A stretch of DNA of 60,576 nt from an uncultured virus (IMG/VR IMGVR_UViG_3300042937_001207) (Duplodnaviria; Heunggongvirae; Uroviricota; Caudoviricetes). A program made the translations under genes and the position numbers. The notes under the pieces were generated by a model. It saw only the letters and a program-made list of their open reading frames with translations. It searched no databases and was not told the DNA's origin. This document shows positions 9,001 through 60,573 of this stretch, one piece after another; the stretch's first letter is position 1, and every line of letters begins with the position of its first letter. Where the stretch lies: the IMG/VR virus record IMGVR_UViG_3300042937_001207; one strand, written 5' to 3'.

Positions 9001-12000
9001 ACTCCAGAATGGGACTCAGACAGTCCTGAGGTTAGAGTTTTCCTACCAGAAACACCTCCAGTCGTAGTTGGAAATCCATTTTATGGCCCGTATGAAGCAC
9101 GTCGCTTCTCTGATGGTGCGCAGAAAGACCAAGAAGCTTTGGCTAGGTGGTTCTCAGGGCTAGGAGATTTGCTTAAATACCACATTTCGGGCGGACAGCT
9201 TTACGAGGCAACAATCGGACCAGATGAAGACTCCCCGTCTGTCTTTCCAGAATTAGAAAATTCAAAAACTAAAAAAGTAAATGAAATGATTAATGAGGGA
9301 CAGTTCCCTGGATTAATCAGGTCAATGCGTCACATAATGCGCGAATCATACAATCAGATGCTTGTTGAGCAAGAAATTGCTGAAGATTTTGGACAAAATT
9401 CATACTCTGAAAGTGAAGATGACGCAATTGAATTTGAATCAGGATTTATTGATGCAGAGTCAATAATGTCAATTGATAGCCCTATAGCAAAAGACATACT
9501 TGCGGTTTATAGAGCGCTTGGGAGAAGCACATCTGGTTTTGTAAAAGGTGACTCAAAATGGATTAACGATGTTGTTCGTTTGATGTCTAGAGATTCAGAG
9601 CTTGAGCGAATTGGTCTTAACGAAGATTCCAAAAATAGAATAAACGATTGGATGAGAAGAGCCACAAGCAGAGAGTTCAAAGCTGCCCAGGCAATGTCAT
9701 CAATACACTCAATGATGATTGATGCTGTAAACGATATAAATCGAGCAATGTATCCAATCTCTCAATTCACGGATAGAACAGTCGCTGACGACCAGATGCT
9801 TGCATGGTATCTAGATAGAATTTTCAAAGCAATATACGACGAGTCGTCTGTTTCTAGTTTTGTACTTGAAGACATGTCTAGAGAAAAAGGTGCAGACTTT
9901 GTTCAACTTAATCCAGAACAAACCGAAAGATGGTACGACTCTGTCAAAGATTTGTCGGACACAATGGCTGCGCTTTTTGCAGACGCAATTGAATTTTCTT
10001 CAGTTAATTCAAAAATATCAGACGACTCATTTGACATGCTTTCGGTTGCACCGAGAAAAGCAGCAGATGGAAGATTCTCAATTTATGGCCCTGATATCGT
10101 TTACAGTGGGTTTGAAGATTCAAGACCCTATAACAAAAATGTTAAATGGTTTGCTCAACCTGGAGCAGAACAACAGGTTGAGTCATTGTATGAAATGTAT
10201 GAAAAATCACCAGATGTTTACTGGTGGCAAGATAGTAGTGGCAATATATCAACCGATGAGCCAATAACCACAAAAGACATTCTGTCAATGGATTCAGGAG
10301 AAGAATTTTCTAGGTACATCAAGATACTTACAGAATCTCTTTCTGCATCACCAGATGAAGATGCAGCAAATGTTCTTAGAAAACTATTCGGAGTGACTCT
10401 TTCTGATGGTGTTTCCTTAAACAAGGAAGAGTTGGCTCTTGCAAAAGCATACTCACAGCTAAACGGGTTTTTGCGTTCAGAGGTTGATGCTCTTAAGGAG
10501 AACAAAACTAGAGTCTCTGAAAATATGACCATGTCTTCATATTTCCCATGGGTGAACTGGTCAAATTCCTCCGACGCCTATCCAGTAATTTCTGGAGATA
10601 TCCAGTCAATGCTGACACCGAAACAAGCAGAACGTTTTGACAAGATAAATTCTTTTACAGAGGAAAAAGTAAATTCTCTTAACGACGACGCTCGTGCAAC
10701 ATACGCACGGTATCTTGAATCGCAAAAAAATACAACCGCTATTAATAACTTGCGAAGAACTCAGGGGACATTTAGCGAAGTAATGCGCCCGATAGACCGA
10801 GTTAATGAAGAAATAGCAAAGCTTAGAGAAAATCGTGAGTACTCTATAAAAGCAATAGAAATTCTTGGAGCGCTAAACGGTTTTGCACAAGAAATTGGAG
10901 CTGAAGAAATAGCCAACGACATTGATATTCTCACCATGAAAGTTATTAATGCTCTTGATACCAATGACAAAAATGCCGCATTTACAACGATAAGAGACTT
11001 TGCATCATCTGTAATATCGGACAAATTTGGTGAATATTTGAACTTTTTTGATTCAGCAATAAGCGTTGGTGACGCATTTGAAAAAGTTGCACAATTTATA
11101 AAAGCTGAAGACAAAAAAACAAGAAGAAACTCCTTGATGTCAAGGTATAAGCGAGAAGTTATTGATTCAATACCTGAGTCAGTTTTGTCCTCTTCAAGAA
11201 AGTCCAAAAATGTTAAAACATTTGATTCTTGGTTAAATGAAAATGGCTACGAAGATTTGACATATGAGTTTTATTCATCAGCTGACGATATACCAAAAAA
11301 TTTCTTTAGTGAGTCATCTCCGAATGAAGACAATAGAATTGTTCCACCCGGTGATGGCCCAGTTGGGAAAATGGCCTTAAATCGATACACAAAACCAAAT
11401 ATTCTTTCTGTTGTACATGCTCACGAAGAAGCAAAGCTTGGAAACTCAAGCGAAGTTACTATTCCTCACTTGCTGTTGGGTCTAGCAAGAGAAAATATTG
11501 GGAAAAAGTCTGTCAATCAAAGTATTGCAGGCAGAGTTCTCGCAAGACTCGGAATAAATGTAAACGAATTGCGTGATGCAATAAACAATACTGTAGCCAA
11601 AAGCTCAGATGAGAATTCAGACAAAGTTATTGCTTTGAGCTTTGGTGCAAGAAAAACAATGATTAACTCTGTTAAAGAAGCACTCAATCGTGGAGAGAAC
11701 ATAATTGACACAGAGCACTTAATCGCTTCTATTGCAAAAACAGACGACGGCAGAGATGACGGACTGTCAAGCATTCTGGAATCTCTTGGAACTAACAAGT
11801 CTGAGCTTTTGGCCGAGAGTATTTCAACTATGAAGCGATTCTCGATGGGTTCATTCCCGAACGAGCGTGGTCCTGTTGGAAAAATGGGAGTTGCTAGAGA
11901 GCAGATTCTTCAAAAAGATAGAGAAATTGAAGCACTTAGGGCAGAAGTTAATTCGTCAAACCTTTGGTTCAATAGAGATAGAAATCCAGGAATTAGAAAC

Positions 12001-23994: not shown

Positions 23995-24393
23995 TTACTC
24001 TTCTATTTTATTTTTTACCTGGGAGTACTTTGCGTAATGAAGAGTTCTCTCTGCATATTCAGGATTTAGTGTTTTAAACCAGTTTCCAACCGACCTCATT
24101 AGAACCCCCGGTTTGCCGGTTGCCTCGCATGTCCTGCCTGCAATTTCCTCGTACCTCGCAACGACAGCGTCCATCTCGTCACGTAAGCCTGGATTTGAAG
24201 ACTGGAAATAGTACCTAAGCCCACCAAATTTTTCTTTTACCTGGAACAAGTCGTATTTTGGGTCAATTTTGGATAGCTCTTTATCGCAATCAATAATCAA
24301 TTGATACCAGCCCTCGTCGACTTCTATCCGAGAGTAATAGGGGGGTTTTATCTTCTTTGCTAGTTCTTCTACATGTTTACTTAAGTCATTCAT
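23995..24393 (-). CDS. Conserved phage hypothetical protein
   Basis: GWYQLI..QVKEKFGGLRYY..TCE..G.PG motif typical of phage proteins. Confidence 0.7.
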   Translation of the reverse strand: MNDLSKHVEELAKKIKPPYYSRIEVDEGWYQLIIDCDKELSKIDPKYDLFQVKEKFGGLRYYFQSSNPGLRDEMDAVVARYEEIAGRTCEATGKPGVLMRSVGNWFKTLNPEYAERTLHYAKYSQVKNKIEE

Positions 24394-25190: not shown

Positions 25191-25211
25191 ACATCCTCCG
25201 TTGGTGCGTTG

Positions 25212-25284
<73 letters not shown>

Positions 25285-43995: not shown

Positions 43996-45367
43996 CCAAT
44001 ACTCCTTTAAAAATTTTTCCAAGCCATTCTGCTACTGGTGCAGCTACTCCGTTACCGGTTTGCTTATACCTAGCTGTATCGGGCTGTTCTTTTCCGTCTG
44101 CACGCCATCTGGTGTGGTCCACGGGCCAGCCCATCAAAATCTCACATTCTTTTGGCAAAAGGCGTCTAACCACCATGTTCTGCAACACCCCGGTTGACTG
44201 TTTTGTACCAGCCCTGATTGCATGATGTATGCCGCCGTCAATAAGCTTGTCGTTGTATTCATCGTAAGCAATTGCATCAATGACAAGGTTTTCACCCCTG
44301 CTTGACGGCACTCCACCGTCGCCACCACTACGAAGTGTCATTGCTATCCCGTCATTGAGTTCTTCGTTTTGTGCGACCATTGGAGTGTTTAGGCCACCAG
44401 TGCCCATAAACGCAGTCAATGTGTTGATGGTGTCGCCCTGCAAGCGAACCCCATCCTGTCTGTGCGGGTGGAACACTATTGGTGAATCATCGTTTTCGTA
44501 AGCAACACTTGGTGACTGCTGTGTAGCTTTGAGTGTTGGTGAATGGTCTGTAAATACATTTGCATTTGAGCCGAATTGGGTGTCAAAGGAATAAACTTCT
44601 TCATTTGTAACAATTGTTCCAGGGCCTTTTGCGTCACGGGCTCGCAATGTTAGAGCTTTGTCGGTTTCTTGCCATTTAGCAAAACCGCTGTTCTCAAATG
44701 CTAGGACTCCCTGTTCGCTACTGCTTCCAGTGCTTGACGAAGCTTTTCCGGCAACTTCTTGTTTCGCCTGTCTGCCCTTCTGAGAATGCCTTCGCATGCC
44801 CTCTTGGACAGGTAGTAACGGGAGGGGACTTCGCTCTGCGGCACCAATATCGTATGTAGCACACACGAAGATGCGGCGCCGTCGCTGGGCGATTCCGTAG
44901 TACTGAGCATCAAGGATTGCCCAGTCAAGCGCCACGCACCCTGATTTGGCCATTTCATCGAGGACGACCCCAAAGTCAGCACCCTTGTTGGAAGTAAGTG
45001 CTCCGGGAACGTTTTCCCAGATTGCGAGTCGTGGGTATTGTCCATTTGTTGCATCACGCATCTCCTTGATAATTCTTATTGCTTCATGAAATAAACCAGA
45101 GCGCTCACCAGAGAGGCCTTTTCGGACGCCAGCCACGGAGAGGTCCTGGCACGGGCTACCGAAGTTTATGCAGTCAACTGGTTCTATTTCATTGCCTTTA
45201 ACATCTCTAACATCAAGATATTTAGGGATGTCTGGCCAGTGTTTCTTAAGTATCTGCTGGCATGCGGGGTCCCATTCAACTTGCCACCGGCATTGCCAGT
45301 CGGCGGCTTCAAACCCAAGGTCGAAACCGCCGACTCCGGCGAAGAGGCTGCCAAATGTCAGGCTCAG
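43976..45367 (-). CDS. DNA (cytosine-5) methyltransferase, probable CTG start
   Basis: The frame extends upstream of the listed ORF to give motif I SLFAGVGGFD, VEWD, motif IV GSPCQDLS, ENVPG, QRRRRIF, and motif X RYKQTGNGV; the CTG overlaps the ssb TGA. Confidence 0.9.
   Translation of the reverse strand: MSLTFGSLFAGVGGFDLGFEAADWQCRWQVEWDPACQQILKKHWPDIPKYLDVRDVKGNEIEPVDCINFGSPCQDLSVAGVRKGLSGERSGLFHEAIRIIKEMRDATNGQYPRLAIWENVPGALTSNKGADFGVVLDEMAKSGCVALDWAILDAQYYGIAQRRRRIFVCATYDIGAAERSPLPLLPVQEGMRRHSQKGRQAKQEVAGKASSSTGSSSEQGVLAFENSGFAKWQETDKALTLRARDAKGPGTIVTNEEVYSFDTQFGSNANVFTDHSPTLKATQQSPSVAYENDDSPIVFHPHRQDGVRLQGDTINTLTAFMGTGGLNTPMVAQNEELNDGIAMTLRSGGDGGVPSSRGENLVIDAIAYDEYNDKLIDGGIHHAIRAGTKQSTGVLQNMVVRRLLPKECEILMGWPVDHTRWRADGKEQPDTARYKQTGNGVAAPVAEWLGKIFKGVLDESTIS
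44701..45057 (-). CDS. Nested alternate-frame ORF inside the methyltransferase (beta-subunit-like)
   Basis: 118 aa with L..IL....VPSRYYLSKRACEGILRRA.RR.K.LP..L..ALE; GGAG RBS upstream. Confidence 0.6.
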   Translation of the reverse strand: MMQQMDNTHDSQSGKTFPEHLLPTRVLTLGSSSMKWPNQGAWRLTGQSLMLSTTESPSDGAASSCVLHTILVPQSEVPSRYYLSKRACEGILRRADRRNKKLPEKLRQALEAVANRES

Positions 45368-45843
45368 AAAGGCTCTTCCCCGAATGAATCAAAGTCATTG
45401 CGGGTTGTAGCTGGACGAGCGCCTGCTCGTGCTGGTGCTTTCTGTGCAGGACGAGCGTTGACAGGGTTGCCAGAAGCATTCTCTGCCTTTGCTTTGCGCT
45501 GCAATGTCTCAATGTTGCGAACAGAAATACCGATTTCGTCTGCAAGAACGTTCACTGCTGAACGCTTCTTACCTGTTTCTTTGTCGTCCCATGTTTCTTG
45601 CTCAAGACGACCGGTCACGGTCACACGAATTCCCTTTTCAAGAACTCGTACTGCATCTTCGGCAAGGTTTCGCCATGCGATTACATTGAAGTAGGAAGTC
45701 TTTTCCTGCTTTTCGCCCTTGGCGTCTGTCCAGAAGTTATTGACTGCTACGGAAAAAGAAAGCTTTCCTGCTCCTGAGTCAAAATAACGGATTTCTGGGT
45801 CCGCCGTTAGGTTCCCGGTTATTGTTACTGGCGCTGATGACAT
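45364..45843 (-). CDS. ssb: Single-stranded DNA-binding protein
   Basis: ITGNLTADPE, VIAWRNLAE, VTVTGRLEQ, acidic tail EEPF; AAGGAG RBS. Confidence 0.96.
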   Translation of the reverse strand: MSSAPVTITGNLTADPEIRYFDSGAGKLSFSVAVNNFWTDAKGEKQEKTSYFNVIAWRNLAEDAVRVLEKGIRVTVTGRLEQETWDDKETGKKRSAVNVLADEIGISVRNIETLQRKAKAENASGNPVNARPAQKAPARAGARPATTRNDFDSFGEEPF

Positions 45844-45912
45844 GTTCGTATTCTCCTTGTGTTGAGTTGATTATCGCCAAAAGCAGCTTATCACCCATGA
45901 TAGGCTCTGTCA

Positions 45913-46131
45913 ATGGCTACTAATCCTTTTGAAATAAGGCTTTCGTTAACCAATGCGATTGCCAATTCGCTGTTTGATATTGCTTTTGACCAAAGCTTAT
46001 CCGACGCTGAGCTTAAACAGCAACTTGAAGACTACAAAGATGTTGCGGCAATGATTCTTGAAGACCTTGGATGTGAAGTCCTTGAACTCAAAGAAGGAAA
46101 GATGATTTGCTCCTTCAGTCCACAAAAATAA
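45913..46131 (+). CDS. Small hypothetical protein
   Basis: 72 aa; leaderless TAGGCT-N6-ATG. Confidence 0.65.
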   Translation: MATNPFEIRLSLTNAIANSLFDIAFDQSLSDAELKQQLEDYKDVAAMILEDLGCEVLELKEGKMICSFSPQK

Positions 46132-46133
46132 TA

Positions 46134-49100
46134 CGGGACTAGTAAGTGACAGGAGTAAATTGAAGCGCAGAAGAAGCGAAGCGACTGGTATTCCAAAGAA
46201 ATACGGAAGGCCCCATTTACTCCATTTACGAATGGCTGTAGGCCGAAGGCCGTAAGCCTGAAGAGCGAGCAGCGTTAAATGGATAAATGGAGGGAGTATT
46301 GCTTTGGAATGCGAGCAAGCAATTTCGCCGTGGACTTTTATTCAAATATATTCGGGACTAAAAACTGGGTAAGCATTTGCGTACGAAGTCGAAATGCTGC
46401 GCAGCTGTTTAGGGTGTTGTGCACGCCCAGCGTGCAAGCGAAGCGTCATAAGCCCTAATAGCGAAGCAACAGTTCGACTGTATGCAATGCGGTAATTGTG
46501 ATGAGACTAAATACGGGACTAATAACTGCTGGGAGCAAACAGCGAAGTTGCTTTCTTTTTGAGCATGGCGGGAGCGAGAAGGTTCCAGGAGCGGAGTTAT
46601 TTTACGATTAAAGAATTTAAGGGAACAAGCGAGGATGCGAGCGTTGAAGGACGAGAAGCTTGAATGCAAACAGTAAAAGTTCGGGACTAGAGACCATTCA
46701 AGCGGTGAGTCGTTTGAGGCGAGCTGCGATGCGCAGTGTACTTAAAGGATTTAAGAGTGAGATAACGAGCATTCTGGAATTTCGAGCGTTCGCCGAGTGA
46801 GAAAAGAAGCACGAGCACAAGTTGTGATTTTTGTAGCAAGCGAAGCTTGCGGGACTATAGAGAATGTTTTATAAGCAATGTTTAACAAACAGCTTTACGA
46901 AGTGAAACCGGGCAGCTGCTGAAGGTTGGTGGTAGCTCTTTTGCGGACACCACCGGAAGCATCTGCTGGTGAGCGAGTAGGCGTGGACTTTTATTTATCA
47001 AAAAAAAACGGGACTAATAACCACATGGTTAGGCATGTGCCTGTTTTGAAAAGGAGTGGAGCGACTGTTGGTTTTTAAAGTTTACGGAAGAGGCTCTTTT
47101 TGTCTTTTTTGAGCGAGGCACGAGCGAAAGCGACGCTTGCGGAGCGGTAAAAAGAAAAAAAGAGAGGGAGTAAAATTTAACAAACCATGAAAAACGGCAC
47201 TGCCGGGAGTTGTTAGATAAATTATTACGGGACTTACTTCTATAAGCCAACAAGCATTGCGTCTTTCTGTTCGATGTGAATGAGCGTGCTGGTAACGAGG
47301 TACGAAGTTACGCAAAGCGAAAGAACAACGAAAAAGAAAACGCATGCGGTAGCTTTTATTTGAAACGCATCGGGACTAAAAACCAACAACAACGAGCATT
47401 CCGAACGAAGCCAGAGTAGCCGCCGAGGCTTCCCGTAGTTTGCGTAGGGAGCCTGGCGTCTACCTGGCAAGCGAGGAGGCGAAGTGAAGCTTTATGTTTG
47501 CCTTTACGGGACTAGTTTTTGCGAGCGAGCAAGCATTGCATTTTCGTTCGACTCGGAGTGAGCGTGCTGTTCCGAGGTACGAAGGAACGCAAAGCGAACG
47601 TAGGTCGAAAAGAAAATGTATGCGGTGAGTGAGTACTAAGAAAAACGGGACTTATATGTTGCAGGACTGTTTGACGAGTCGCATAGCGACGAAGTGTTAT
47701 TTTGTGTACCCAGAAGGAGGAGTAAGGTATGCGTAGGGAGATGCGAAGCAACGAAGTGCGACAGCAATTCGGCGCTAGCATAAGCGAAGCGACCTTGCGA
47801 CCGAACTTCTGGGGTAGCAAAATACACGAGAAGCGTTGCGACGAGGCGAATGTCCGGGATGTCGCAATCAAAGATAGATATTTATTGAAGTCTCGGGACT
47901 CAGTAGTTGTTGAATCAATGATGTATTTCTTTCCTTCAAACAGCTTAGACAGATAAGAAATCTAGGCGATTCTAGAGAAGCGAAGCGAAGCTACGAATCG
48001 ACGGTTACCGGGTTCAAAAGCGGAGGGTTGTTGAGACCGAGCAGCGGTCGAAAACATCCGTAGCGTTGAACTCGGTAAAGATTTCGTATATGGATAAGCG
48101 GGAACCATTCATTCAATGTCCGTACGGGGCTGAAAACCTAAACAGTTATACCCGTTATCCGGGATGAGGAAGCGTACTTCCCACGGCCCCCCGCTCAGCG
48201 AGCACGAAATCATTTTTGATTTCGATGCCTCGCTCCGTGGGAATTCGCTGGTGCCAAAGTTGTTAGATAAATCTGCACGGGACTTGATAACAAGATTTTG
48301 TAGCACCACGGGTGGAGCGATGACTTGAGTGCGAGTATCGCTGTAGTGGAGCGGGTAAATCGATGAAGCTAGCGAGCGATTTTTGTGCAACAAAATGAAG
48401 CGAGCGTTGCTGAAGAGATTTCTCGCGTAACGGAAGTGGACGAGCGACTCAGTCAGAGCGTAACTCCGTTGGTGGTGCAAAATCTGGTGAGCTTTATACA
48501 GCTTTCTACGGGGCTTAAGAACAAATCCGGGCGTTCGTTTCTTTCTGTGAACCAGAGGTAGTGAGCAACGGTCAAGCCTCTTGACGAAGCGAAGGCGATG
48601 CAGCGCAATCGGTTGCGTCGGCTCGCTAAATGAGTTAGCGATGACTAATCAATCATCTGTCGGATAATCGGGACTAGAGACTTGATGCCGGGAAGAAGCT
48701 AAATCATTTAGTGATGCGTAAGCAACGATTGAGCTGACGGAGACGAGCCAGAAGTCAAGGGCTTGCAGTTGCGAACGGTCTCTGGAGAACAGAAGAACGA
48801 ACATGGTAATTAATCGGGACTATAAAGTTCTTTCTTTTATCAGTAAGGGTTAGTTATCTCGACCGAGCGAGTGTGCTGCGACGTTTCGGTGCGAGGAGTT
48901 CGGATTACTCCGAAACCGAGCATCGAGCGGAGCATCACGTGAGCGAGAGAGAGTAACGGTGGTTGTCCGGTGGATATTTACGGGACTAATAAGTAGCGAG
49001 CAGTTTCTGAGTACGCAACATTCAAAAGCGTAGTGAAGCATTTTCTGGATTGGAGACATCGCTAGGTACACGAAGGAGTGATGTTTGTGTTCGGACTTGC

Positions 49101-50743
49101 CGAAATACCAATCTATTGGTATGAGGTTGGTGGTCCGCAGGACTCACCAATCCGACAAGCAAACTGAAGCGACTGAAGTGTCCGCAGTGATGTCGGAGAG
49201 CCAGAATTGCGAACTTAGCGTTGAATGTGGAGTACTCGGAACGCAAGCGGTGACTGTTATTCAATTACCTACGGGACTAAAGAGTCTGAACAAGAGCGCT
49301 CTTCTGGGGCTATCCAGTAGCCAAGCGCAGCCTCGTGCGTGCGTGGGCAGCATGCCCTTGCGTGCACGGGCGAAGCGGGCGGTTGGATAGAAACAGAAAG
49401 TGCGTCTACCGGAGTTGTGTTCTTACTTATTGCGGGACTAGTGAATAGCGATGTTTCTCTTTTTGCGCAAGAAGCCTGCGGAGCGAGCAGTTCCTGAATC
49501 GTAGCCATGGCCGAGGTGGACGAATGAGCGATGTTTGTTGTACGGGCTTGACTACATATCGAAGCAGGATTCGATATGTAGTTTGGCGGTTCGTAGAACT
49601 CGCCAATCCGGGAAACAAACTGAAGCGATTGAAGTACCCGACGCTATGGCGGAGAGGCAGGATTGCGAGAGTAGCGAGGCTGTTTGCGGGAAAAGGAACA
49701 AGCGGGGATAGTTATTCAATAATCAATCGGGACTAATAAGCGTGCGCATTTCGCGTAGGAAACGGAGCTCGTGACGTAGCTTCGTGGAGCGCGGAAGTTC
49801 CTTCAAGCGAACACGAGCGGAGCACGAGCGGTGTTTCCGAGAGAATGCGGTAACCAAACAAATTACTAGGTCAATGTTATTAAGGTCGGGACTAATTACC
49901 AATTTAGGCAAGTAAGCCATTTCATTGACTGAACAACCGTGAGCGAAGCTTTCCCAGGCCGAGGCACGAGCGCCGGGAAGCGGAGCGGTCGGTAGTGAAG
50001 TCATGAATGGCGTCGGTTAGTGCGATTGGTGGCTGAGCATGGCGTAGAAGGCAAGCGAAGTACTTGCCGACGCGTGATAACGCATCGGTGCACCGAAGAC
50101 GAGCCGCTTGTCGGCAGCGGATTCGAGTGCATACGAAGCGAGCCTGCGAAGCCGTGCTGTGACACCAAGCAAGCACGACAGTTGTCATGGGGGCTTCGGG
50201 ACTAAAAAGTAATTACAGGTAATCAATATTTCCGGGTGTTGAGACATTTCATCGCGCAACCAGCACCGAAGCGGAAAAACTGCTTGTAGCGAAGCGGAAA
50301 GCGTTTTGTAGCGGTGGTGCAGGTGGAGCGTGAATGTCGACAAAGCGAGATAAGACCGAGCCTTGGTGGAGCGAGGAACCCAGGTGAAGCCAAGACGAAG
50401 TCTGGCGTAATCTGGGCTGCGAAGCGGAGCCAGTGTGAGGGTGAAATTGAGCGTGGATTGTTATGTCGGTCATCGGGACTAATAAATAACGATTGCGGCT
50501 GTCGAATAGTTATTTCATCCGCAGAACCACCCGTAGTGAGAAAACTGATGAGCACATTTATGGGCGAAATCGTTTTCGAACGGGGGGTGGTGAGCGGTGA
50601 ATAACGTCAAGCGCAATAAAACTGAGCCCAAGGTGGAGCGAGAAGCCGGGCGCTGCCACGCCGAAGGGTGGCCGCGTCTGGATACGAAGCGCAACCTGAG
50701 GCGAGGTTGCAATGGAGCAGGGACTGTGATTAGAGTCGGGACT
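46134..50743 (+). repeat. Non-coding array of 24 co-oriented CGGG(A/G)CT motifs separated by 136-310 bp structured units
   Basis: CGGGACT at 46134, 46353, 46514, 46682, 46850, 47009, 47228, 47371, 47507, 47646, 47894, 48278, 48669, 48815, 48981, 49272, 49433, 49728, 49887, 50197, 50474 and 50737; CGGGGCT at 48125 and 48509; long inverted repeats in the units examined; no credible CDS. Confidence 0.92.
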
Positions 50744-50806
50744 GAAAGACATGCAGCAGCAGGGCTGTTCTACCTATTAGTATCTCTTTCGCCAGGATGG
50801 AGAAAA

Positions 50807-51040
50807 ATGATGCAAAATGAAATGACTATGACACGCAGAAAAAGTAAACCACAGTCCCGTACGGAATTATGGCGTTGCCCCAACTGCGGGCATGAGGTTA
50901 GTATTGGCGTTCCTGCAATGCAAGCGTCCTGCAGTAATAAAGAAAAGCACACTTCTAGCACTGTTGAGATGGAATTAGTCCATTCTTTTTGGGATGACAA
51001 CATCAATGGTCGGAACGTCAAGTTTTATGAGCGCTCCTAA
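50807..51040 (+). CDS. Small Zn-ribbon protein
   Basis: WRCPNCGH...CSN..KH; GGAGA RBS. Confidence 0.55.
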   Translation: MMQNEMTMTRRKSKPQSRTELWRCPNCGHEVSIGVPAMQASCSNKEKHTSSTVEMELVHSFWDDNINGRNVKFYERS

Positions 51041-51162
51041 GCCCCGCCCGACTTCTTCGCAAGCCATCTCCAGGCAATAAAATAAGCCAAACCCCATACG
51101 GGACTCCAGACCGGTTTTCCCGGGGTTTTCAAAAGCAAAAAACAAATGACGGTGGCGGATGA
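51040..51162 (+). repeat. Tripartite intergenic element, copy 1
   Basis: AGCCCCGC at 51040, CGGGACT at 51099, ATGACGGTGGCGGATGA at 51146. Confidence 0.8.
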
Positions 51163-51218
51163 GAAATATTCTGCCTTGGGGGTTGCAAGCCGCAAGTATC
51201 CTCGCTACTATTCACCCC

Positions 51219-51428
51219 ATGCAAACCAAGCGGATTGAGCAGCTCGCAGTAGGGAACATCTTTACTTGGGCTTTTCACGAGCACTATCGGGTAACTGAAA
51301 TCAAAGCACCGACACGCAGCAACGGCAGCACTTATCTGCTCAGCTATGTCGGTCTAGAAACTGGAACCAAAGTTCTTGACCGCAAGATGCCTAAAAAATC
51401 AATCTGCGAATTCATCAAAGGGGAATAG
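51219..51428 (+). CDS. Hypothetical protein
   Basis: Promoter TTGCAA-N17-TACTAT-N7-ATG. Confidence 0.6.
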   Translation: MQTKRIEQLAVGNIFTWAFHEHYRVTEIKAPTRSNGSTYLLSYVGLETGTKVLDRKMPKKSICEFIKGE

Positions 51429-51430
51429 CA

Positions 51431-51601
51431 ATGGCTAAGAAACCACTTTACAAAAAAACAGTTATTTCAGGAAAGAAGTTCCGCAAGGCGTTGTACGAGT
51501 TTCTGCCTACAGCAGACATCGAGCACGACAACGAGGGCCAGGTAATTATTTACACAGGTCTCACCGAGGGAAACGGTGACAACTACGTACTTATTGACTA
51601 G
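51431..51601 (+). CDS. Small hypothetical protein (56 aa, not in the ORF track)
   Basis: MAKKPLYKK..DNEGQVIIYTGL; AGGGGAA RBS. Confidence 0.55.
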   Translation: MAKKPLYKKTVISGKKFRKALYEFLPTADIEHDNEGQVIIYTGLTEGNGDNYVLID

Positions 51602-51649
51602 AATAAAAATCACCCACTAAAAAATCAATTACTAAAAAAAGGAAACATC

Positions 51650-52126
51650 ATGAAAAGCAATTTAGAGCTGACAGAAGCTGCAACAGAAATTTTCAATGAC
51701 TTGGCTAACTGGCCGGGTCTTACAAAGTCCACGTGCCATATTTTCAAGAGCCGTGACGGGCAACTGGTGACACTTGGTGTCTACGGTGATATCTATGTTG
51801 GTTTGGAAAACATCGCCAACGAGACCGACGAAGAAACACTTCACGACTTCGAGTTTCTTGGAGTTGAAACCTCTGGCTGGGCAGCTCCTATTCGGGAAGG
51901 GGGCGACGATGACATCATCCCTAGCAGGCACCCAGAACGTCGTCGAGTGCGTATGTTGAGTGTTATTGACCGGACATGCCGCATTGCTTCGGTGATGAGC
52001 CTTGACGACGACGGAGAAATTCTTACCGACCTTGCAGGGAGTGGAAGCCTTGCTGATGCATTGCGTCTCGTGATGGCAAATGTCCTTGCAGCGGAAAGCA
52101 TCACTGCGGCTTGGGCAACAAAATGA
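51650..52126 (+). CDS. Hypothetical phage protein
   Basis: GWAAP..PS.HPERRRVR..GSGSLADAL; AAGGA RBS. Confidence 0.7.
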   Translation: MKSNLELTEAATEIFNDLANWPGLTKSTCHIFKSRDGQLVTLGVYGDIYVGLENIANETDEETLHDFEFLGVETSGWAAPIREGGDDDIIPSRHPERRRVRMLSVIDRTCRIASVMSLDDDGEILTDLAGSGSLADALRLVMANVLAAESITAAWATK

Positions 52127-52392
52127 GGTTGACACTCACGGTAAGCATGTTCAAGTTCGTTTGGGACGGCGGTCCGTACTGCAACATCTCCCACATCAAA
52201 GCTCCCTTGAAGCCGTTTACACAAATCCGGCTATGGGACATCGAGACAGCAAAAAGCATGATTGGAGAAATTGGGCAGCAGGGCACGGCAGAGCGTTTTG
52301 CTGTGAAGTGCAACGATTGGATTTCAACCGAAGCTTTTGATTGGCTTCGTTCTGGTGAACTTTCTATTCACATCATGGAGAATGCATCATGA
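52123..52392 (+). CDS. Hypothetical protein
   Basis: ATGA overlaps on both sides. Confidence 0.55.
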   Translation: MRLTLTVSMFKFVWDGGPYCNISHIKAPLKPFTQIRLWDIETAKSMIGEIGQQGTAERFAVKCNDWISTEAFDWLRSGELSIHIMENAS

Positions 52393-52673
52393 GTACAAAC
52401 ATTGGGTATGTGGTCAACAAGTACACGGGAGAAGCCTGTCCACTTGAACGGGTTCTTATTGTTGGCTCGACGGGTGAAGCTTCTGCTTACAGGAAAGACA
52501 ACGGTATTCGTCTTGGAGGTGATAAGCATGTCGTTGTTGTTGGAAAAGACGATACGTCTGAAGGAATGTACAACCACCCTGCGTGGCGAGCAAAAATGAT
52601 GCTTGTTGCCGGCCAGGCTGGCTTGCCGCTCTCTGCCTCGTGGGGAATTATGAGCATGACGAGGAGTAAGTAA
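52389..52673 (+). CDS. Hypothetical protein
   Basis: GGAG RBS; translationally coupled. Confidence 0.55.
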   Translation: MSTNIGYVVNKYTGEACPLERVLIVGSTGEASAYRKDNGIRLGGDKHVVVVGKDDTSEGMYNHPAWRAKMMLVAGQAGLPLSASWGIMSMTRSK

Positions 52674-53174
52674 ATGGGTTACACGCACTACACGGACAGG
52701 CCTGTCGGTAATCATGGAACAGCAGAAATGTTTGGGAAGCTTGCACTAGATGCAAAGCTGATTTGCGAGCACGCACAATCCATGGGCATTCGCCTGGCAG
52801 GACCTTTTGGAGAGGTCGGAACATCACCTGAATTTACCGAGGGTTATTTTGCTTTCAATGGTGAGGACGGCCCTGACGGTGATTTGTCGCACGAGACATT
52901 CCGGTGGGAAGCAAATCCCGTTCAGCCTGAGTGGCGGCAAGACGAGTTGTTCTATTTTGACTTTTGCAAAACAAATCAGAAACCGTACGATGCGGTAGTT
53001 ACAGCTATCCTTATTCGAGCAAAAGTAATCTACGGTAAATTGCTGCAGGTAAGTTCTGACGGAGAATGGACAGGAGACCAACTGTCGTGGGGTACATGGG
53101 CCTCAGGGAGGGCGCTATATGAAGAGGTATTCAACATCGAGGCTCCTTGCCCGTTCGTCCGGACTGAGGTTTAG
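52674..53174 (+). CDS. Conserved phage hypothetical protein
   Basis: MGYTHY..FNG..HETF..FCKT..KPYD.VVTA.L..VSSDG. Confidence 0.75.
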   Translation: MGYTHYTDRPVGNHGTAEMFGKLALDAKLICEHAQSMGIRLAGPFGEVGTSPEFTEGYFAFNGEDGPDGDLSHETFRWEANPVQPEWRQDELFYFDFCKTNQKPYDAVVTAILIRAKVIYGKLLQVSSDGEWTGDQLSWGTWASGRALYEEVFNIEAPCPFVRTEV

Positions 53175-53442
53175 GTTGTATGCAATCGTCGTCCTGTTGA
53201 TTATTTTCTGCGTATTCAACTAAAAAAGTTTGTCCATCGGTATTTCTTGATGCTTTACTTCTACACAAATTTTGTGTGCGTATAGAAAAAGTTCATCAAT
53301 ACTCTTTGCTCCGGAAATGCTACCGCACGGTAACCATGCTCTCACTAGACGCATCGTTGATTTACTTGTAGTGTCAACAGGGTTGCCACAGAAGTTACAA
53401 GGGACTAAACCTGACATTCAAACACTCTACATCGGAGGATGC

Positions 53443-53646
53443 ATGCCTTACAAGGATAAATCAAAACATTTAGAGTGGCAGCGTGAAAACCGAGAGAATA
53501 CATTCGCCAAAAAGCTTCGCAGGCGTGAATACGAACGAGAACGAAAGCGCCGCAAGAGGCTTGAGCAGATAAATTCTCTTCCTGAACCTGAGCGAAGCAA
53601 AAAGCTGGCCAAACTCAGGGGACCATACTCACGAAGCCTGTTATAA
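53443..53646 (+). CDS. Small basic hypothetical protein
   Basis: MPYKD..; GGAGG RBS. Confidence 0.55.
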   Translation: MPYKDKSKHLEWQRENRENTFAKKLRRREYERERKRRKRLEQINSLPEPERSKKLAKLRGPYSRSLL

Positions 53647-53655
53647 ACACTATTC

Positions 53656-54431
53656 AGCCCCGCTCCGCTCTTCTCTCTGCCGGCCGGTGCGCACGTAGAG
53701 CTATTTAGCCCCGCCCCCCACTTTCCCCCCAGCCCCAGACCCCTAGAAACAACTTTCGGGACTGCGTTTCGCTCTTTGCGACGACTTGATGACGGTGGCG
53801 GATGACGTGAGCTGCTTGCTCGACGTGGAAAAGTAAAACTTCCAGGCCAAAACTTCAGCTCAGCTCTTCGACTGCAGCTCCCGGGAATCAAACCAGAAAG
53901 GCAATTAGAAGCTATTCAGCCCCGCACGCAATCTTCTGAAGCGCGACATCCGGAATCTTGTGATTAAACCCCCTTCGGGACTGCAGTCCTTGAAATCAGC
54001 TTTTGATGACGGTGTCGGATGAGATTTGACTGGGCAGCTCGTTCGACCAGGAAGAAATAAAAAAATCTTTTTGTTGAGGTTGCTTTTTATCGTAGCTCTG
54101 GTTAATATGTCCATACCTACCTAAGGAGCTTCTATGCATAGAAGATAATCAGGGGGGTCGTTCTACCGAAAGGGTGAGCGGCCCCCCTTTTTTTATGCCT
54201 TTTTTCTGTTTCCTTCTCACGGTAAAAATCCTGCAAAAACTTGCAATTCTCTAGGACCCGGGTAACAGCTCATCAAAAGCTAAGTTTCAAGCTTTACAGC
54301 CCCGCCTCCCTCTACGTTGGCATTTTATCTCTTCGATGGCAGCACGAGTCGATGTCTGTGCATAAAACAAACAGCGGGACTGCAGGGTTTGGAATTATTG
54401 GACATTTTTGATGACGGTGGCGGATGACGTG
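53656..54431 (+). repeat. Tripartite intergenic elements, copies 2-4
   Basis: AGCCCCGC at 53656, 53707, 53918 and 54298; CGGGACTGC at 53757, 53976 and 54375; TGATGACGGTG(G/T)CGGATGA at about 53787, 54004 and 54409. Confidence 0.85.
54080..54195 (+). other. Promoter-RBS-minigene-terminator unit (MHRR*)
   Basis: TTGCTT-N17-TAATAT; AAGGAG at 54123; ATG CAT AGA AGA TAA at 54134-54148; GGGGGTCG...CGGCCCCC hairpin followed by a T run. Confidence 0.55.
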
Positions 54432-54614
54432 GCCACCCGGGTAGCTCAGCAAATAATTTTGCTTCGCTCGGCACCGTGGACCAGTTTTTCAGGTCTTGAT
54501 AGTGGACCAGTTTTTCAGGTCAAAAAAAAACAAAAAATGTTTGGAAATGTTTGCCTTGTTGGTTGTAAGCCGCTACTATGTACCCCATCAAGTACATCTA
54601 TTAAAGGAGGGCTC

Positions 54615-54896
54615 ATGGGCCGTAAGTATATTGAAGACCTTATTGAAGAGGGGTGGAGGCTCGACTTGGATTCGCTGATTGCAATCCATCTGTCAAACAA
54701 CCATTATCCAAGTGTTCCAGCAGTCATGGTTAAGCCATGCAAGGAAGCAATCCTCCACGCTGAGCAGGAAGCTCTCCATGAGCTTGTACAGCTCCCAGCT
54801 GGCGTCATGTGGCGCAACCAGACCTCCATTAAGGCTGGAACCCTCATGGACGCATTCCACCTGTGGTCATTCCTTGACCAAGTCCAGGAGGCGTAA
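54615..54896 (+). CDS. Hypothetical phage protein
   Basis: HL..NHYP.VP..MV.PC.EAI..HL..F; AAGGAGG RBS. Confidence 0.7.
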   Translation: MGRKYIEDLIEEGWRLDLDSLIAIHLSNNHYPSVPAVMVKPCKEAILHAEQEALHELVQLPAGVMWRNQTSIKAGTLMDAFHLWSFLDQVQEA

Positions 54897-54898
54897 TC

Positions 54899-55189
54899 AT
54901 GTGGGAAGACGTTGAAAAAGCAACAATGAGCGCACTGCTCATCTCTTGGGATTCATGCCACAAGATTTACCTCGCTATGGACGCTGAACAAGCTGCCTGG
55001 TTTGAGAGGAACTACACGGAAGAAAACAATTCAGTTTCTTTTCGTGGCGCTCCTTGGGAGATGTATGAGAAAATTCAGGAGTGGTGGGATGTCTCATGTT
55101 CACTCCGCTTCATCTCAGCTGTATGGACCGATAACGACAATCCAAATGATGGTTTCATTAGCTTGATTCCACAGTTCGCAGGAGTGTGA
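54899..55189 (+). CDS. Hypothetical phage protein
   Basis: WDSCHKIYLAMD..WW..SC.LRFI; GGAGG RBS. Confidence 0.7.
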   Translation: MWEDVEKATMSALLISWDSCHKIYLAMDAEQAAWFERNYTEENNSVSFRGAPWEMYEKIQEWWDVSCSLRFISAVWTDNDNPNDGFISLIPQFAGV

Positions 55190-55190
55190 A

Positions 55191-55430
55191 ATGACTATTT
55201 ACCATGTAACAAACCGTGAATCTCGCCTGCAGACGCAGGACCGCTACATTGTCTACAACTTGACCAAAGAGCTTCCAGTCGAGTGGAAGTACTGGACCGT
55301 TGACCAACAGGGTTACTGGCTCAACGAAAACGCCGAGTTCATCAGTGACTCTTTCTCCGATGTTGAGCTGGAGGATATGGAAGAAGACACAATCCATATT
55401 GAAAAAGACGAACTGCAAGGGGACCTCTAA
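55191..55430 (+). CDS. Hypothetical protein
   Basis: AGGAG RBS. Confidence 0.65.
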   Translation: MTIYHVTNRESRLQTQDRYIVYNLTKELPVEWKYWTVDQQGYWLNENAEFISDSFSDVELEDMEEDTIHIEKDELQGDL

Positions 55431-55599
55431 TGGACCTCTCCGTTCACAGGGCAATCTTTATCGCAACCAGCCTCTCGACCGTCCTGATGGCCTGGATGGC
55501 ATTTGCCGCCCCGGTTATTACTTCAAAAGAAATTGTTTGGAGTTGCATTATTGCTGGGGCACATGTAGTATCTGGTTATCAGTTATTAAAGGAGTTCAA

Positions 55600-55950
55600 A
55601 TGAAATCAGTTAAATCGGTTGAAGAGTCAAGGGAAGAAGCTGTAGAGCTTTGCTTGTTTGCTGAAAACGATAGCCGTTGTTATCACAACTACTTAGTGCC
55701 GGCATTCAAGAACCAGCAACGTCACTATGACCGTAATCTGAAAAAAGGAGTAGAGAGCAACTTCGACCTTACCGTTTTACTTTTCACGCACACCATGAAG
55801 CTTTGCGCGCAGGAATATTGCCGTCAACATGGTTCGCCAACTGTTAAGTGGCATGAAGTCTTCGATGTGCTTACACGAATTTACGCTGCTCGTCACTTCG
55901 CAGAATATTTCGTTGCAGAATACAACGCAGGAAATCGGTGGGAAATCTAA
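55600..55950 (+). CDS. Hypothetical protein
   Basis: AAGGAG RBS; EL.LFAEND motif. Confidence 0.7.
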   Translation: MKSVKSVEESREEAVELCLFAENDSRCYHNYLVPAFKNQQRHYDRNLKKGVESNFDLTVLLFTHTMKLCAQEYCRQHGSPTVKWHEVFDVLTRIYAARHFAEYFVAEYNAGNRWEI

Positions 55951-56126
55951 TGCAGAAGTATTCAATCAATATTGAGTTCTCTACTGACAGGCCAATGACG
56001 GACGACGAAATTGCTGCCATGGAGACTGCTGTTTATGTTCAGGTATCTGAGCCAAGTGGATTAGACGGCGACAAACGTGCCGGCTTCAACACACGAACAG
56101 TTGAAATCACGGTAAACGAGCTTTAA
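55950..56126 (+). CDS. Small hypothetical protein
   Basis: TAATG overlap. Confidence 0.55.
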   Translation: MQKYSINIEFSTDRPMTDDEIAAMETAVYVQVSEPSGLDGDKRAGFNTRTVEITVNEL

Positions 56127-56175
56127 AGGTTTCTGGCCACTAGGTCAGGATTAACAAATAAAACAAGGAGAAAAA

Positions 56176-56388
56176 ATGCAATCACGCATCAAAAAAGTTG
56201 CATCACGCATCAAGTCAAATCGCATGGAGGCTGGGTTGACACAACAGCAGCTTGCCGATTTCGCTGGCGTGGACCGCAAAACAATTAACCGCATCGAGAA
56301 TGGACACTTCTCCCCAAACATCGAGACGCTTCTTCGTATCTCAGTTGCTTTCGGAGTCAAGCCAGAAAGCCTTCTCGCTGGCGTTTAA
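56176..56388 (+). CDS. XRE-family HTH transcriptional regulator
   Basis: R...GLTQQQLADFAGVDRKTINRIENG..SPNIETL.RI; AAGGAG RBS. Confidence 0.92.
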   Translation: MQSRIKKVASRIKSNRMEAGLTQQQLADFAGVDRKTINRIENGHFSPNIETLLRISVAFGVKPESLLAGV

Positions 56389-56489
56389 TGCAGGCGCTAG
56401 TAGTTCTGCTCATTCTGTGGGTGCTCTTCTTATGAGGAGCACCCACTTTTTGGTTGTGTTACCACTTACAAGTCGTTAGGATTTAAATT

Positions 56490-56717
56490 ATGAAAGAATC
56501 AGTTACTAAACCAACAAAACTCTCAAAAGAGTTCTTAATTGCATTCAATGAGTACATTCTTGCTGGCTACAAGCTCCTGGATGCTTGGCAGTCGCTCGAC
56601 GAGAATCAGCTCGAGATGGTTAACAGCGATGTTTTCCCATTCAACATGTCTTTTGATGAGTACTTAGCCACAATGGCAAGCAACAAGTTTCGTTTAGAAA
56701 AGGAAAGCAGCTTCTAA
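56490..56717 (+). CDS. Hypothetical protein
   Basis: 75 aa; FPFNMSFDE. Confidence 0.6.
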   Translation: MKESVTKPTKLSKEFLIAFNEYILAGYKLLDAWQSLDENQLEMVNSDVFPFNMSFDEYLATMASNKFRLEKESSF

Positions 56718-56935
56718 TGGAAAAACAAGTTATACGCACCTACTCACGTTCTGAACAAGTAGAGATGAACTCTGCTGTAGGAAAAGTTGGTGAAGTTTCC
56801 ATCGAGGAGCTTCTCGTTGGAGTAAAAATCGTAAATGAGCGCTTTCGCTACGGCCATTACGATGTTCTCGTATCTCCGCTCATCGGCAAAGGTGAGAAGT
56901 GGGTTGAATTCCACAAAGTTAGGGTAAAAAGCTAA
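56717..56935 (+). CDS. Hypothetical protein
   Basis: TAATG overlap; RYG..D.LV.PL.G.GEKWV. Confidence 0.65.
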   Translation: MEKQVIRTYSRSEQVEMNSAVGKVGEVSIEELLVGVKIVNERFRYGHYDVLVSPLIGKGEKWVEFHKVRVKS

Positions 56936-57576
56936 AAAGGTATCGTTTTGAGTACTTTTTAGTCTTCCCGGGGTACTTCTCAGCAAAAATTACGCTTTTT
57001 AAATACTTTTACATGTTCTGGCCGTACTTTGTAGCCCCGCTTACGCGTTTTACCGTACTATTGATGTGTTCTGACGGTACCGGATGAGGAGTTTGAAATG
57101 AGTTTTTTAGATGCTTGGCGGCTTCTTGGTGTATTTATTATCTTCGCACTGCTTCTGGTCTCTTTTTTTGGTGGTTAGACGCCGGGCCGGCTTTCTCGAC
57201 CAATACCTACCGAAAAGAGCTTCCGAATGGGAGAAAACCGTACCCGACTTGCCAGGAGGGGGCCCCTGGCCGGCTTAAATACTACATCAAAAAGATTTCA
57301 GTCCCGTGCTTGACCGGATTCTGATTACGCGCTACGGTTCACCGCAAAAAGTAGTACATCGTGATTTACTTCTACGGATGTTAAAACGTTTCCTTCGACA
57401 AAGGTTTACTTCTCTCGCGTGATACTGATTCGGTAGTCAAATCAATGTTCAATAAACTTGGCACGGTGGTTGATGACCTCGTTACTCCTGTAGATAGACC
57501 AGTAAAAACGTTTGTACTACAAAGGGTTTGTGAACAAGCAGTTGCTTTTTTGCAAATGTCGCGCCAGGATGTTTTC

Positions 57577-57963
57577 ATGAATGAAAATTTGTTTGGTTTT
57601 GATGAGCCGGCAGCGCCCCGGGAAACAAAATCAAAGAAATCAAAACGTGCGAAGTCAAAGCTTGTAAGCCCCGCTGAGATTCAACAGGTTTTCGATGAAT
57701 GGCTACGGTGGTGTAAGACAAGCAGCCGGGGTGTTCGGCCGAAGCTTTCAGAAGAACGAAGCATAATTATCGGCTCTGCGATTTATGATTACGGATTAAC
57801 TGATTGTTTGCTTGCGGTTCAAGGCTGCAGCTTGTCTTCTTGGCACATGGGAGAAAATCCAACAGGAACCAGGTACGACGATATTGAATTAATCCTTCGT
57901 GATGCAAAGCACGTCGAGCGATTTGCCGGCCTGGCAGCTGCAGAAGAAGCTAAAAACGATTGA
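57577..57963 (+). CDS. Phage replication-initiator C-terminal-like protein
   Basis: VFDEW..KLSEER..I..AI..YG...C..AV.GC..S.WHMGEN..G..YDDIELILRDA.HVERF; start uncertain (ORF open from 57445). Confidence 0.6.
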   Translation: MNENLFGFDEPAAPRETKSKKSKRAKSKLVSPAEIQQVFDEWLRWCKTSSRGVRPKLSEERSIIIGSAIYDYGLTDCLLAVQGCSLSSWHMGENPTGTRYDDIELILRDAKHVERFAGLAAAEEAKND

Positions 57964-58110
57964 CAAAGCTTTTAAGCCCCGCTACAATTACCGGATGGCC
58001 AAAGATGACGTGCAGATTCAAGTCGGGACTGCACAGTCTGCTGGTATTCAGTTGTCGGGACTGCATACCAGCTGGCCGAGGTCTTTTTTGATGACGGCGG
58101 CGTATGAGCT
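57960..58110 (+). promoter_or_regulatory. Promoter with AGCCCCGC in its spacer, followed by a tripartite element
   Basis: TTGACA-N17(containing AGCCCCGC)-TACAAT; CGGGACTGCA at 58024 and 58056; TGATGACGGCGGCGTATGA at about 58089. Confidence 0.7.
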
Positions 58111-59173: not shown

Positions 59174-59247
59174 GCGTCGATAGCTCAATCGGATAGAGCA
59201 ACAGACTTCTAATCTGTAGGTTGTAGGTTCGATTCCTACTCGACGCG
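59174..59247 (+). tRNA. tRNA-Arg(TCT)
   Basis: GCGTCGA..AGCTCAATCGGATAGAGC ACAGA-CTTCTAA-TCTGT..GTAGG-TTCGATT-CCTAC TCGACGC G. Confidence 0.95.
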
Positions 59248-59262
59248 CTGTAATTGTAAGTC

Positions 59263-59352: not shown

Positions 59353-59428
59353 TGGCGAGTAGCTCAGCTGGCAGAGCAGCGGACTGTTAATCCGCTTGTC
59401 GTAGGTTCGAGCCCTACCTCGCCAGCCA
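59353..59428 (+). tRNA. tRNA-Asn(GTT) with encoded CCA
   Basis: TGGCGAG..GCGGA-CTGTTAA-TCCGC..GTAGG-TTCGAGC-CCTAC CTCGCCA G CCA. Confidence 0.95.
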
Positions 59429-60070: not shown

Positions 60071-60325
60071 TTACTTGCTCGGCAACCCATCTGGTCGTAC
60101 GAACTGCAATCGCCAGTTCTTCTGTTCAAACTCGAGCGTCTTCTCATACGCATTCTTAAGTCGCTCAAAAGCTTCCTTCGTCTCTGCATACTCCGATGTT
60201 CCGTTCCTCTGGCTCATCTTAAGTTCAGCCATCTTGGCTGTAAGCAACCTGCACAGCATCTTGTACTGGTACTCATTCATTACAACCGGCACTACATGAT
60301 TCTTCTTGCTCATTAGTCGTTCCAC
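60071..60325 (-). CDS. Hypothetical protein
   Basis: About 80 aa, coupled to the whiB stop. Confidence 0.55.
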   Translation of the reverse strand: MERLMSKKNHVVPVVMNEYQYKMLCRLLTAKMAELKMSQRNGTSEYAETKEAFERLKNAYEKTLEFEQKNWRLQFVRPDGLPSK

Positions 60326-60573
60326 ATCTGGCTAAGCGTTGGCTTAGTAGGTGCGATTCCTCTCCTTCTTTGTTCGGCCGCTAATTGTCTTGATGTCATC
60401 CCTGCCCATACCCCGTGCATGTCAGCAGGTGGAAACTCTAGTGCATACTCCAGGCACTGTGGTCGAACAGTGCAGTACGCACACATCTCCCTAGCCCCCT
60501 GAATGTAACTAATGTCCTTGTGTCCTTTAGGAAACATCTCGTTAGTACGACCCTTGCATCTTGCTAGGTCCAT
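60313..60573 (-). CDS. whiB: WhiB-family transcription factor (may start beyond the window)
   Basis: ARC..MFP..AREMCAYCTVRPQCLEYAL..GVWAGMTSRQ. Confidence 0.9.
   Translation of the reverse strand: MDLARCKGRTNEMFPKGHKDISYIQGAREMCAYCTVRPQCLEYALEFPPADMHGVWAGMTSRQLAAEQRRRGIAPTKPTLSQMWND

Follow-up and report, generated by a model that had tools for sequence, protein, structure and literature searches.

A row of strand-specific hairpin units bounded by CGGGACT in an uncultured tailed phage: a candidate battery of structured non-coding RNAs

The DNA analysed here, hereafter the window, is a stretch of 60,576 nt that forms part of the genome of an uncultured tailed phage (IMG/VR record IMGVR_UViG_3300042937_001207) and carries genes for a ribonucleotide reductase, a primase-helicase, a helicase, a methyltransferase and a major head protein. 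A 4.6-kb row on its + strand (46134-50736) consists of 21 hairpin units free of open reading frames (ORFs), each of which opens with the heptanucleotide CGGGACT. This array adjoins replication genes (the helicase, the primase-helicase and a replication-initiator-like ORF), and the ORFs on either side of it (45239-46131, and those from 50807 on) also have the + strand as their coding strand. The units measure 136-391 nt and the hairpins within them, here called rods, ~100-350 nt. Two of the units, beginning at 47228 and 47507, had been described in an earlier note on this DNA as paralogues whose stems differ by compensatory base changes, and they form the focal pair of this report. The features of the array are as follows, z being the fold-stability score against shuffled sequences.

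46134..50736, + strand: the array, delimited by the motif map, the folds, the families and their covariation, and the lack of coding periodicity
46134, 46353, 46514, 46682, 46850, 47009, 47228, 47371, 47507, 47646, 47894, 48278, 48669, 48815, 48981, 49272, 49433, 49728, 49887, 50197, 50474, + strand: starts of the 21 units
47228..47370, + strand: first focal unit; CGGGACT at 47228-47234, rod at ~47250-47350, apical loop GAGGTACGAA at 47297-47306
47371..47506, + strand: unit between the two paralogues, unrelated to them, with a GC-rich hairpin of its own (z -2.99)
47507..47645, + strand: second focal unit; CGGGACT at 47507-47513, rod at ~47529-47626, apical loop at 47574-47583
47646..47652, + strand: CGGGACT copy that closes the second focal unit and opens the next unit
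48981..49271, + strand: first member of a second paralogous pair, a 291-nt rod with a forked apex
49433..49727, + strand: second member of that pair, 295 nt (z -8.87)
50737..51040, + strand: first protein-coding unit behind the array; CGGGACT at 50737, then GGAG and an ATG at 50807, encoding a small zinc-ribbon-like protein that ends at 51040

The two focal units are paralogues, diverged copies of one hairpin, with a mean column identity of 83% in pairwise alignment, and each folds into the same imperfect hairpin of ~100 nt. The blocks that the earlier note had listed as common to both (CAAGCATTGC, TGAGCGTGCTG, GAGGTACGAAG, CGCAAAGCGAA and ATGCGGT) were all found where it placed them, and the three stem exchanges that it proposed are real in the predicted folds: GTAAC/GTTAC is replaced by GTTCC/GGAAC, TGCGT/ACGCA by TGCAT/ATGTA (with one G.U pair), and TTCGATGT/ACAACGAA, which contains one A.A mismatch, by TTCGACT/GGTCGAA. 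Among the family members the apical stem occurs in four complementary versions, namely GTTCC/GGAAC, GTAAC/GTTAC, GTGAC/GTCAC and GTGCA/TGCAC. The apex enclosed by this stem had been thought invariant; its loop core AGG-ACGA does persist while the closing stem changes, but strict invariance does not hold, as orthologues carry GAGGTACGAA, AAGGCACGAA or GAGGAACGA.

The covariation persists once homologues from related phages are aligned. With a covariance model built from 7 family members, 10 members (9 distinct) were found in the window and in five related loci. In the resulting alignment (A4), which was fitted to a model made from these same sequences, 96.5% of 288 cells are standard pairs, compared with 20.0-52.3% when the partners are slid by 1-3 columns. 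Both sides of the pair have changed in 9 of the 32 stem pairs, a number matched by 4 of 500 shuffles, and 27 cells show such two-sided change (shuffled mean 8.9); neither this count nor the covariation score of 0.322 (0.144 in shuffles) was reached by any of the 500. A plain MAFFT alignment of seven sequences (A2) gave two-sided change in 5 of 32 pairs. The sequences of the focal family represent about four lineages and one old duplication. Fold stability is weak for unit 47228 (z -0.65, with 48 of 200 shuffles as stable) and moderate for unit 47507 (z -2.72, 1 of 200). An antisense target of the conserved apical loop was sought in the window, where 7 near-matches with at most 2 mismatches lie besides both loops, against 2.35 expected for all matches; this is not convincing, and the best of them, at 24147, has a single mismatch.

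Related sequences were obtained by a search with a flanking protein, which returned 8 close relatives only, and by pattern scans of metagenomes and genomes, which yielded at least 3 short true relatives among the 244 loci listed; a DNA search of a phage database gave no match. One relative is complete (G002, 173,962 bp) and holds the same region at ~86% identity. For the array-wide analysis, 297 units (115 distinct) were cut from 13 loci of related contigs and arranged in 20 families, each holding a window unit, which were aligned using MAFFT and folded using RNAalifold.

The consensus folds of the + strand contain 1078 pairs, of which 386 vary; 240 of these vary and are nevertheless standard in every sequence, and 139 pairs are two-sided. 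When the partners were slid by one column, only 21 of 1077 pairs were two-sided. The second family (48981 and 49433) has two-sided change in 24 of 69 pairs in a MAFFT alignment made without reference to structure, and 97.5% of its cells pair, against 35-46% when slid. Long rods are the predicted fold of most units, the lowest z-score being -8.9; free energy is lower on the + strand in 21 of 21 window units, and the consensus energy favours it in 18 of the 20 families. The hairpin fold is under selection and it belongs to the + strand. Selection on secondary structure, which had been proposed for the focal units, is thus supported by two-sided compensatory pairs in the focal family, in the second paralogous family and over the whole array. 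A closing stem between the flanks of consecutive CGGGACT copies, formed by the semi-conserved reverse complements AATAAC/GTTATT, was considered and rejected as a general feature (mean of matched flanks -6.6 and of unmatched flanks -7.1 kcal/mol, p 0.87).

The units of the array are non-coding. Substitutions in 19 hairpin families show no 3-periodicity after allowing for 20 tests (lowest p 0.035), whereas in the coding unit at 50737 they are 3-periodic, with 39 of 58 at the third codon position (p 0.0003). Hidden coding, or the use of another genetic code, was rejected: all six frames are full of stops, reading through any single stop codon yields no long frame on the + strand, and the 3-periodicity is missing. 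The lowest p belongs to unit 48278 (48278-48668), where substitutions fall 18, 37 and 32 by phase, which is not significant over 20 tests; a small ORF may lie inside this unit.

The relatives (at least 6 contigs) differ in the presence, order and copy number of the units, and the junctions fall on CGGGACT. Unit 47228 is missing in two lineages, with its insertion/deletion junction exactly on that motif; a three-unit block with the focal family is duplicated in some relatives; unit 50474 is placed elsewhere in some; and several units are missing from the complete relative. The units behave as cassettes bounded by CGGGACT, and this pattern of gain, loss and duplication indicates that the focal paralogues arose by segmental duplication, followed by divergence with compensation. 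A mosaic breakpoint lies at the start of the array, where three contigs (L160, L161 and L154) that are near-identical upstream (~99.9%) diverge strongly from 46078, at the end of the ORF at 45913-46131, into the first units. A finer change was seen against near-identical sequence (99.9%; contigs L135 and L056), in which 6 of 7 differences in 7,960 bases lie within 47571-47586, the apical stem-loop of unit 47507, and leave the stem complementary. This looks like the replacement of a short patch, or a hot spot of change, rather than scattered mutation, and points to the apex as a site under rapid change.

The window contains 32 copies of CGGGACT itself where 3.4 would be expected, and the motif sits in a short A/T-rich linker ahead of every rod. 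It is invariant in 23 of 23 copies of the array region, and only these 7 bases are; A or T precedes it and A-R-W-R-A follows, with a pyrimidine at +13 in 22 of the 23 copies and a purine at +14 in 18. The complete relative has 25 copies, all of them in a stretch of 12.5 kb and 22 co-oriented. A -35-like element (GTTAT/TTTAT) is found upstream of ~13 of the 23 copies, at variable spacing, and is weak. We incline slightly towards a phage-specific promoter or transcription start signal. It would be possible, but less likely, that a read-through transcript is processed or bound by protein at the motif in its single-stranded linker, and improbable that the motif acts at the DNA level.

The same motif is also found behind the array among small genes of the + strand, where it belongs to a module that occurs five times: AGCCCCGC, 55-80 nt, CGGGACT(G/C)C, 20-40 nt, and an invariant ATGACGG-GG-ATGA box.

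51099, 53757, 53976, 54375, 58024, 58056 (region 51099..58062), + strand: further CGGGACT copies among small genes, each 30-48 nt upstream of the invariant box
51039-51165, 53700-53806, 53913-54022, 54297-54428, 57974-58106: the five copies of the module

In 4 of the 5 copies the ATG of the module starts no more than a tiny frame of 7-29 codons that is not conserved, and the module may be a leader RNA or a control site.

The rods of the 20 families are unrelated in sequence and have a loop architecture in common. Hexamers such as GAAGCG, GAGCGA and GCGAAG are enriched 10-20 times, and the folds contain 55 internal loops of the type G(N)A/G(N)A; dinucleotide shuffles give 3.2, and none of 12 has more than 5. 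Of 78 instances of the purine motif in the minimum-energy folds, 62 have another such motif opposite them on the other arm and only 4 are closed locally. The alternative of local GCGAAGC or d(GCGNAGC) mini-hairpins, with a 2-bp stem and a GNA triloop, was therefore rejected, and the motifs are read as G(N)A/G(N)A loops formed across the rod; some purine partners, e.g. GCGAGG opposite CCGAGC, are incapable of a local hairpin. Unpaired purines vary in 40% of columns and paired positions in 37%, compared with 64% for unpaired pyrimidines and spacers. The earlier note had read the purine-rich loops as probable recognition elements; this would fit their conservation, since unpaired purines vary as little as stems, but most of the purine blocks are paired across the rod and are not free loops. 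Single-U bulges are frequent on the 5' arm (32, against 4.4 in shuffles) and not on the 3' arm (6, against 4.8), and mostly occur where a run of U opposes a shorter run of A. The simplest form of the purine motif is a (GAAGC)x3 micro-repeat at 47977-47991 in unit 47894, which is partly a local GCGAAGC mini-hairpin in the minimum-energy structure.

The folded molecule is probably RNA. This is favoured because the fold is that of the sense strand, G.U pairs are frequent and stay at fixed positions, the boundary motif is common to ordinary genes, and the array region is G-rich and C-poor. G.U accounts for 616 of 5661 paired cells on the + strand against 52 for A.C, while the fold of the minus strand gives 329 and 117, respectively. 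In the reading that we propose, which we hold at even strength, the array would be a battery of structured RNAs of the sense strand that are made early, start or are cut at CGGGACT, and probably serve as protein decoys or scaffolds. The two focal units would be diverged duplicates of one member of this phage-borne battery. Each unit would be read from the + strand to give a rod hairpin RNA of ~100-350 nt, with helices of Watson-Crick and G.U pairs broken by G(N)A/G(N)A purine-purine internal loops, and CGGGACT would mark its boundary, most likely as a phage-specific start signal and less likely as a processing site in a read-through transcript. The rods would build up early in the infection and have a role in trans, in which their purine loops and conserved apical loops offer binding platforms to one or more proteins, whether as decoy, sponge or scaffold.

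Trans-acting RNAs that present protein-binding platforms are favoured as the function because there are ~20 conserved, differing rods with common loop chemistry, which take up ~3% of the genome and stand at the head of an early-looking gene block; nevertheless the assignment of the rods to protein decoys or scaffolds working in trans is tentative. Somewhat more speculative is the fuller scenario that can be modelled on it, in which a lytic actinophage devotes ~3% of its genome to more than 20 early rod RNAs built on tandem G.A pairs, as a decoy battery for a host RNA-binding immune sensor, a nuclease or the transcription machinery; such a battery would be, in a bacterial virus, a counterpart of the adenovirus VA and herpesvirus EBER RNAs, made of swappable cassettes whose apices are exchanged under host pressure.

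A number of observations weigh against the battery of early structured RNAs. Sigma-70-like promoters are not enriched at 45800-51400 (3, against 4.6 expected) and none lies at a unit boundary, nor does CGGGACT resemble any; terminator-like sites in the array region number 4 against 6.1 expected. A U-run ends only about a third of the units, and because of this the units are possibly not separate transcripts. The complete relative has no match to a sigma factor (Sigma70_r2) or to a subunit of a multisubunit polymerase (RNA_pol_Rpb2_6), and none to an L7Ae-type or RNase III-type gene. Units 46514, 46682 and 48669 give no stability signal (z -0.26 to +0.98). The homologues are all close (80-99.9% identity), and for that reason the covariation counts rest on few independent lineages. 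DNA energy parameters, finally, produce the same fold for both focal units and similar z on both strands, so that thermodynamics fails to separate RNA from single-stranded DNA (ssDNA).

The main rival, although an unlikely one, is that the array consists of cis-acting cassettes without a product that works in trans, i.e. repeated units of promoter and hairpin that terminate, insulate, stabilise or time the downstream early genes and promote modular recombination. Units of this kind are the promoter-early stem-loop (PeSL) cassettes of T4-type phages, which Arbiol et al. (2010; PMC2839356) describe as cassettes of a promoter and a stem-loop terminator that shuffle genes. Both systems combine a short repeated signal with a stem-loop, are co-oriented, lie in a plastic early region and shuffle units at the signal, and it is in this shuffling, with the junctions on CGGGACT, that the array is closest to the PeSL cassettes. 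That units appear, disappear, are duplicated and change place exactly at the repeated signal, that a mosaic breakpoint lies at the array start in genomes ~99.9% identical upstream, and that the array stands directly upstream of co-oriented small genes with the same motif would all be expected of such cassettes. However, PeSLs have sigma-70-like early promoters and short intrinsic-terminator hairpins and flank small non-essential genes (PMC2839356), whereas the array has CGGGACT without a sigma-70 match and long, covarying rods, about a third of them with a U-run, in 21 units without a conserved ORF or 3-periodicity. Neither sigma-70 promoters nor canonical terminators are enriched in it, and the units carry no gene cargo. 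Hairpins of 100-350 nt in 20 families, with compensatory change and conserved purine loops, go beyond the needs of a terminator or an insulator, and 7 invariant boundary bases are a poor substrate for homologous recombination.

We consider it quite improbable that the hairpins act as ssDNA, one strand folding in replication, injection or packaging to provide sites for priming, recombination or protein loading. Parallels are known in the G4/ssi priming signals, the N4 hairpin promoters and the attC sites of integrons. Like attC arrays, the array is a row of strand-specific, imperfect hairpins with GNA motifs, whose sequence varies while the structure is conserved; in DNA, too, sheared G.A pairs and GNA motifs are very stable, the focal units fold alike under DNA parameters, and a helicase, a primase-helicase and a replication-initiator-like ORF lie next to the array. 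However, the strand that folds is also the coding strand of the genes on either side, ordinary genes too are preceded by the boundary motif, and the fixed-position G.U pairs (616 of 5661 cells), which as G.T would be costly in DNA, are usual in RNA. The GCGAAGC-type strings, moreover, are engaged across the rod (62 of 78) and only 4 form local mini-hairpins. Compared with attC sites, G4/ssi signals and N4 hairpins, the array units are several times longer, with frequent G.U, cross-rod purine pairing and sense-strand orientation, and no gene cassettes lie between them.

No integrase, Y1 transposase or reverse transcriptase was detected in the complete relative. An integron attC array was rejected both on the lack of a Phage_integrase match in that genome (the control matched in 14 of 14 genomes) and because the units abut, with no ORFs or promoterless gene cassettes between them; a retron msr-msd was rejected on the lack of a RVT_1 match there (the control matched 3 genomes), and a transposon on the lack of Y1_Tnp. 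Palindromic repeats of a selfish or neutral nature, comparable to miniature inverted-repeat transposable elements, that spread in a plastic region and keep their pairing only for mobility would account for units that vary in copy number and are duplicated or moved among relatives, but are a very remote prospect given that the pairing is strand-asymmetric (many G.U, few A.C) with purine loops on one strand where a DNA palindrome would fold equally on both, that 20 sequence-unrelated families have a common loop architecture with constrained loop purines, and that the complete relative gave no match to a transposase or recombinase.

If the rods are taken, as in the proposed reading, to be RNAs that hold proteins, the known systems for comparison are the protein-sponge and decoy RNAs, such as the CsrB/RsmZ family, adenovirus VA RNA and the 6S and Ms1 RNAs. 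These are likewise non-coding RNAs, abundant by design, with repeated protein-holding motifs, and the rod shape is like that of VA, 6S and Ms1. The array, in contrast, repeats a G(N)A/G(N)A internal loop and not a GGA hairpin loop, its folds do not show the large central bubble of a 6S-type RNA, and it comprises 21 different genes in a row, not one. Matches to Rfam at the gathering level in the window are limited to three tRNAs outside the array; at E values up to 5, with 6S, Ms1, CsrB/Rsm and riboswitches included, the array has three chance-level matches, the best of 19.6 bits. Unit 47507 has UCGUUC...GAAGGAACGCA in common with the consensus of the glutamine (glnA) riboswitch, RF01739. This candidate was rejected, as it scores 19.2 bits against a gathering threshold of 35 and its P1 stem, CGUUC/GAACG, is found only in unit 47507 and its nearest orthologues; P1 is missing in unit 47228 and in the GTGAC/GTCAC and GTGCA/TGCAC variants, where it is with the local apical stem that the GAAG-N-ACGC side covaries.

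Few non-coding RNAs of phages are known, most of them from single genes. No similar array was found among the titles and abstract openings returned by a full-text literature search. A conserved row of ~20 differing, covarying rods with a common purine-loop architecture and a boundary signal of its own is not in Rfam either. Should the rods prove to be early decoys or scaffolds made of RNA, they would represent a new phage route to take over or disarm the host, and a ready natural set of RNA modules on tandem G.A pairs; on a more cautious reading, this is cassette shuffling in which an RNA structure, and not a gene, is the cargo.

The remaining features of the window concern the phage and its host. 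An actinobacterial host is pointed to by a WhiB-family gene, a marker of actinobacterial phages, together with a capsid protein 48% identical to those of Brevibacterium and Gordonia phages, including Brevibacterium phage Cantare. In Cantare itself, no non-coding gap longer than ~330 bp lies within 45-90.7 kb.

163-14127, + strand: giant ORF of at least 4654 aa, its frame open to base 1, adjoining the major head protein gene
25211-25284, - strand: tRNA Met-CAT
59174-59248, + strand: tRNA Arg-TCT
59353-59428, + strand: tRNA Asn-GTT
60313-60573, - strand: WhiB-family transcription factor gene (Pfam E 6e-12)

The product of the giant ORF is probably a multi-domain virion or injected protein, with Clp_N (3753-3809), NUDIX (4151-4283) and Zeta-toxin-like kinase (4448-4590) domains; searches with its sequence against Pfam and PDB found no polymerase domain. 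Two of the three tRNA genes, Arg-TCT and Asn-GTT, lie directly behind the early-looking gene block.

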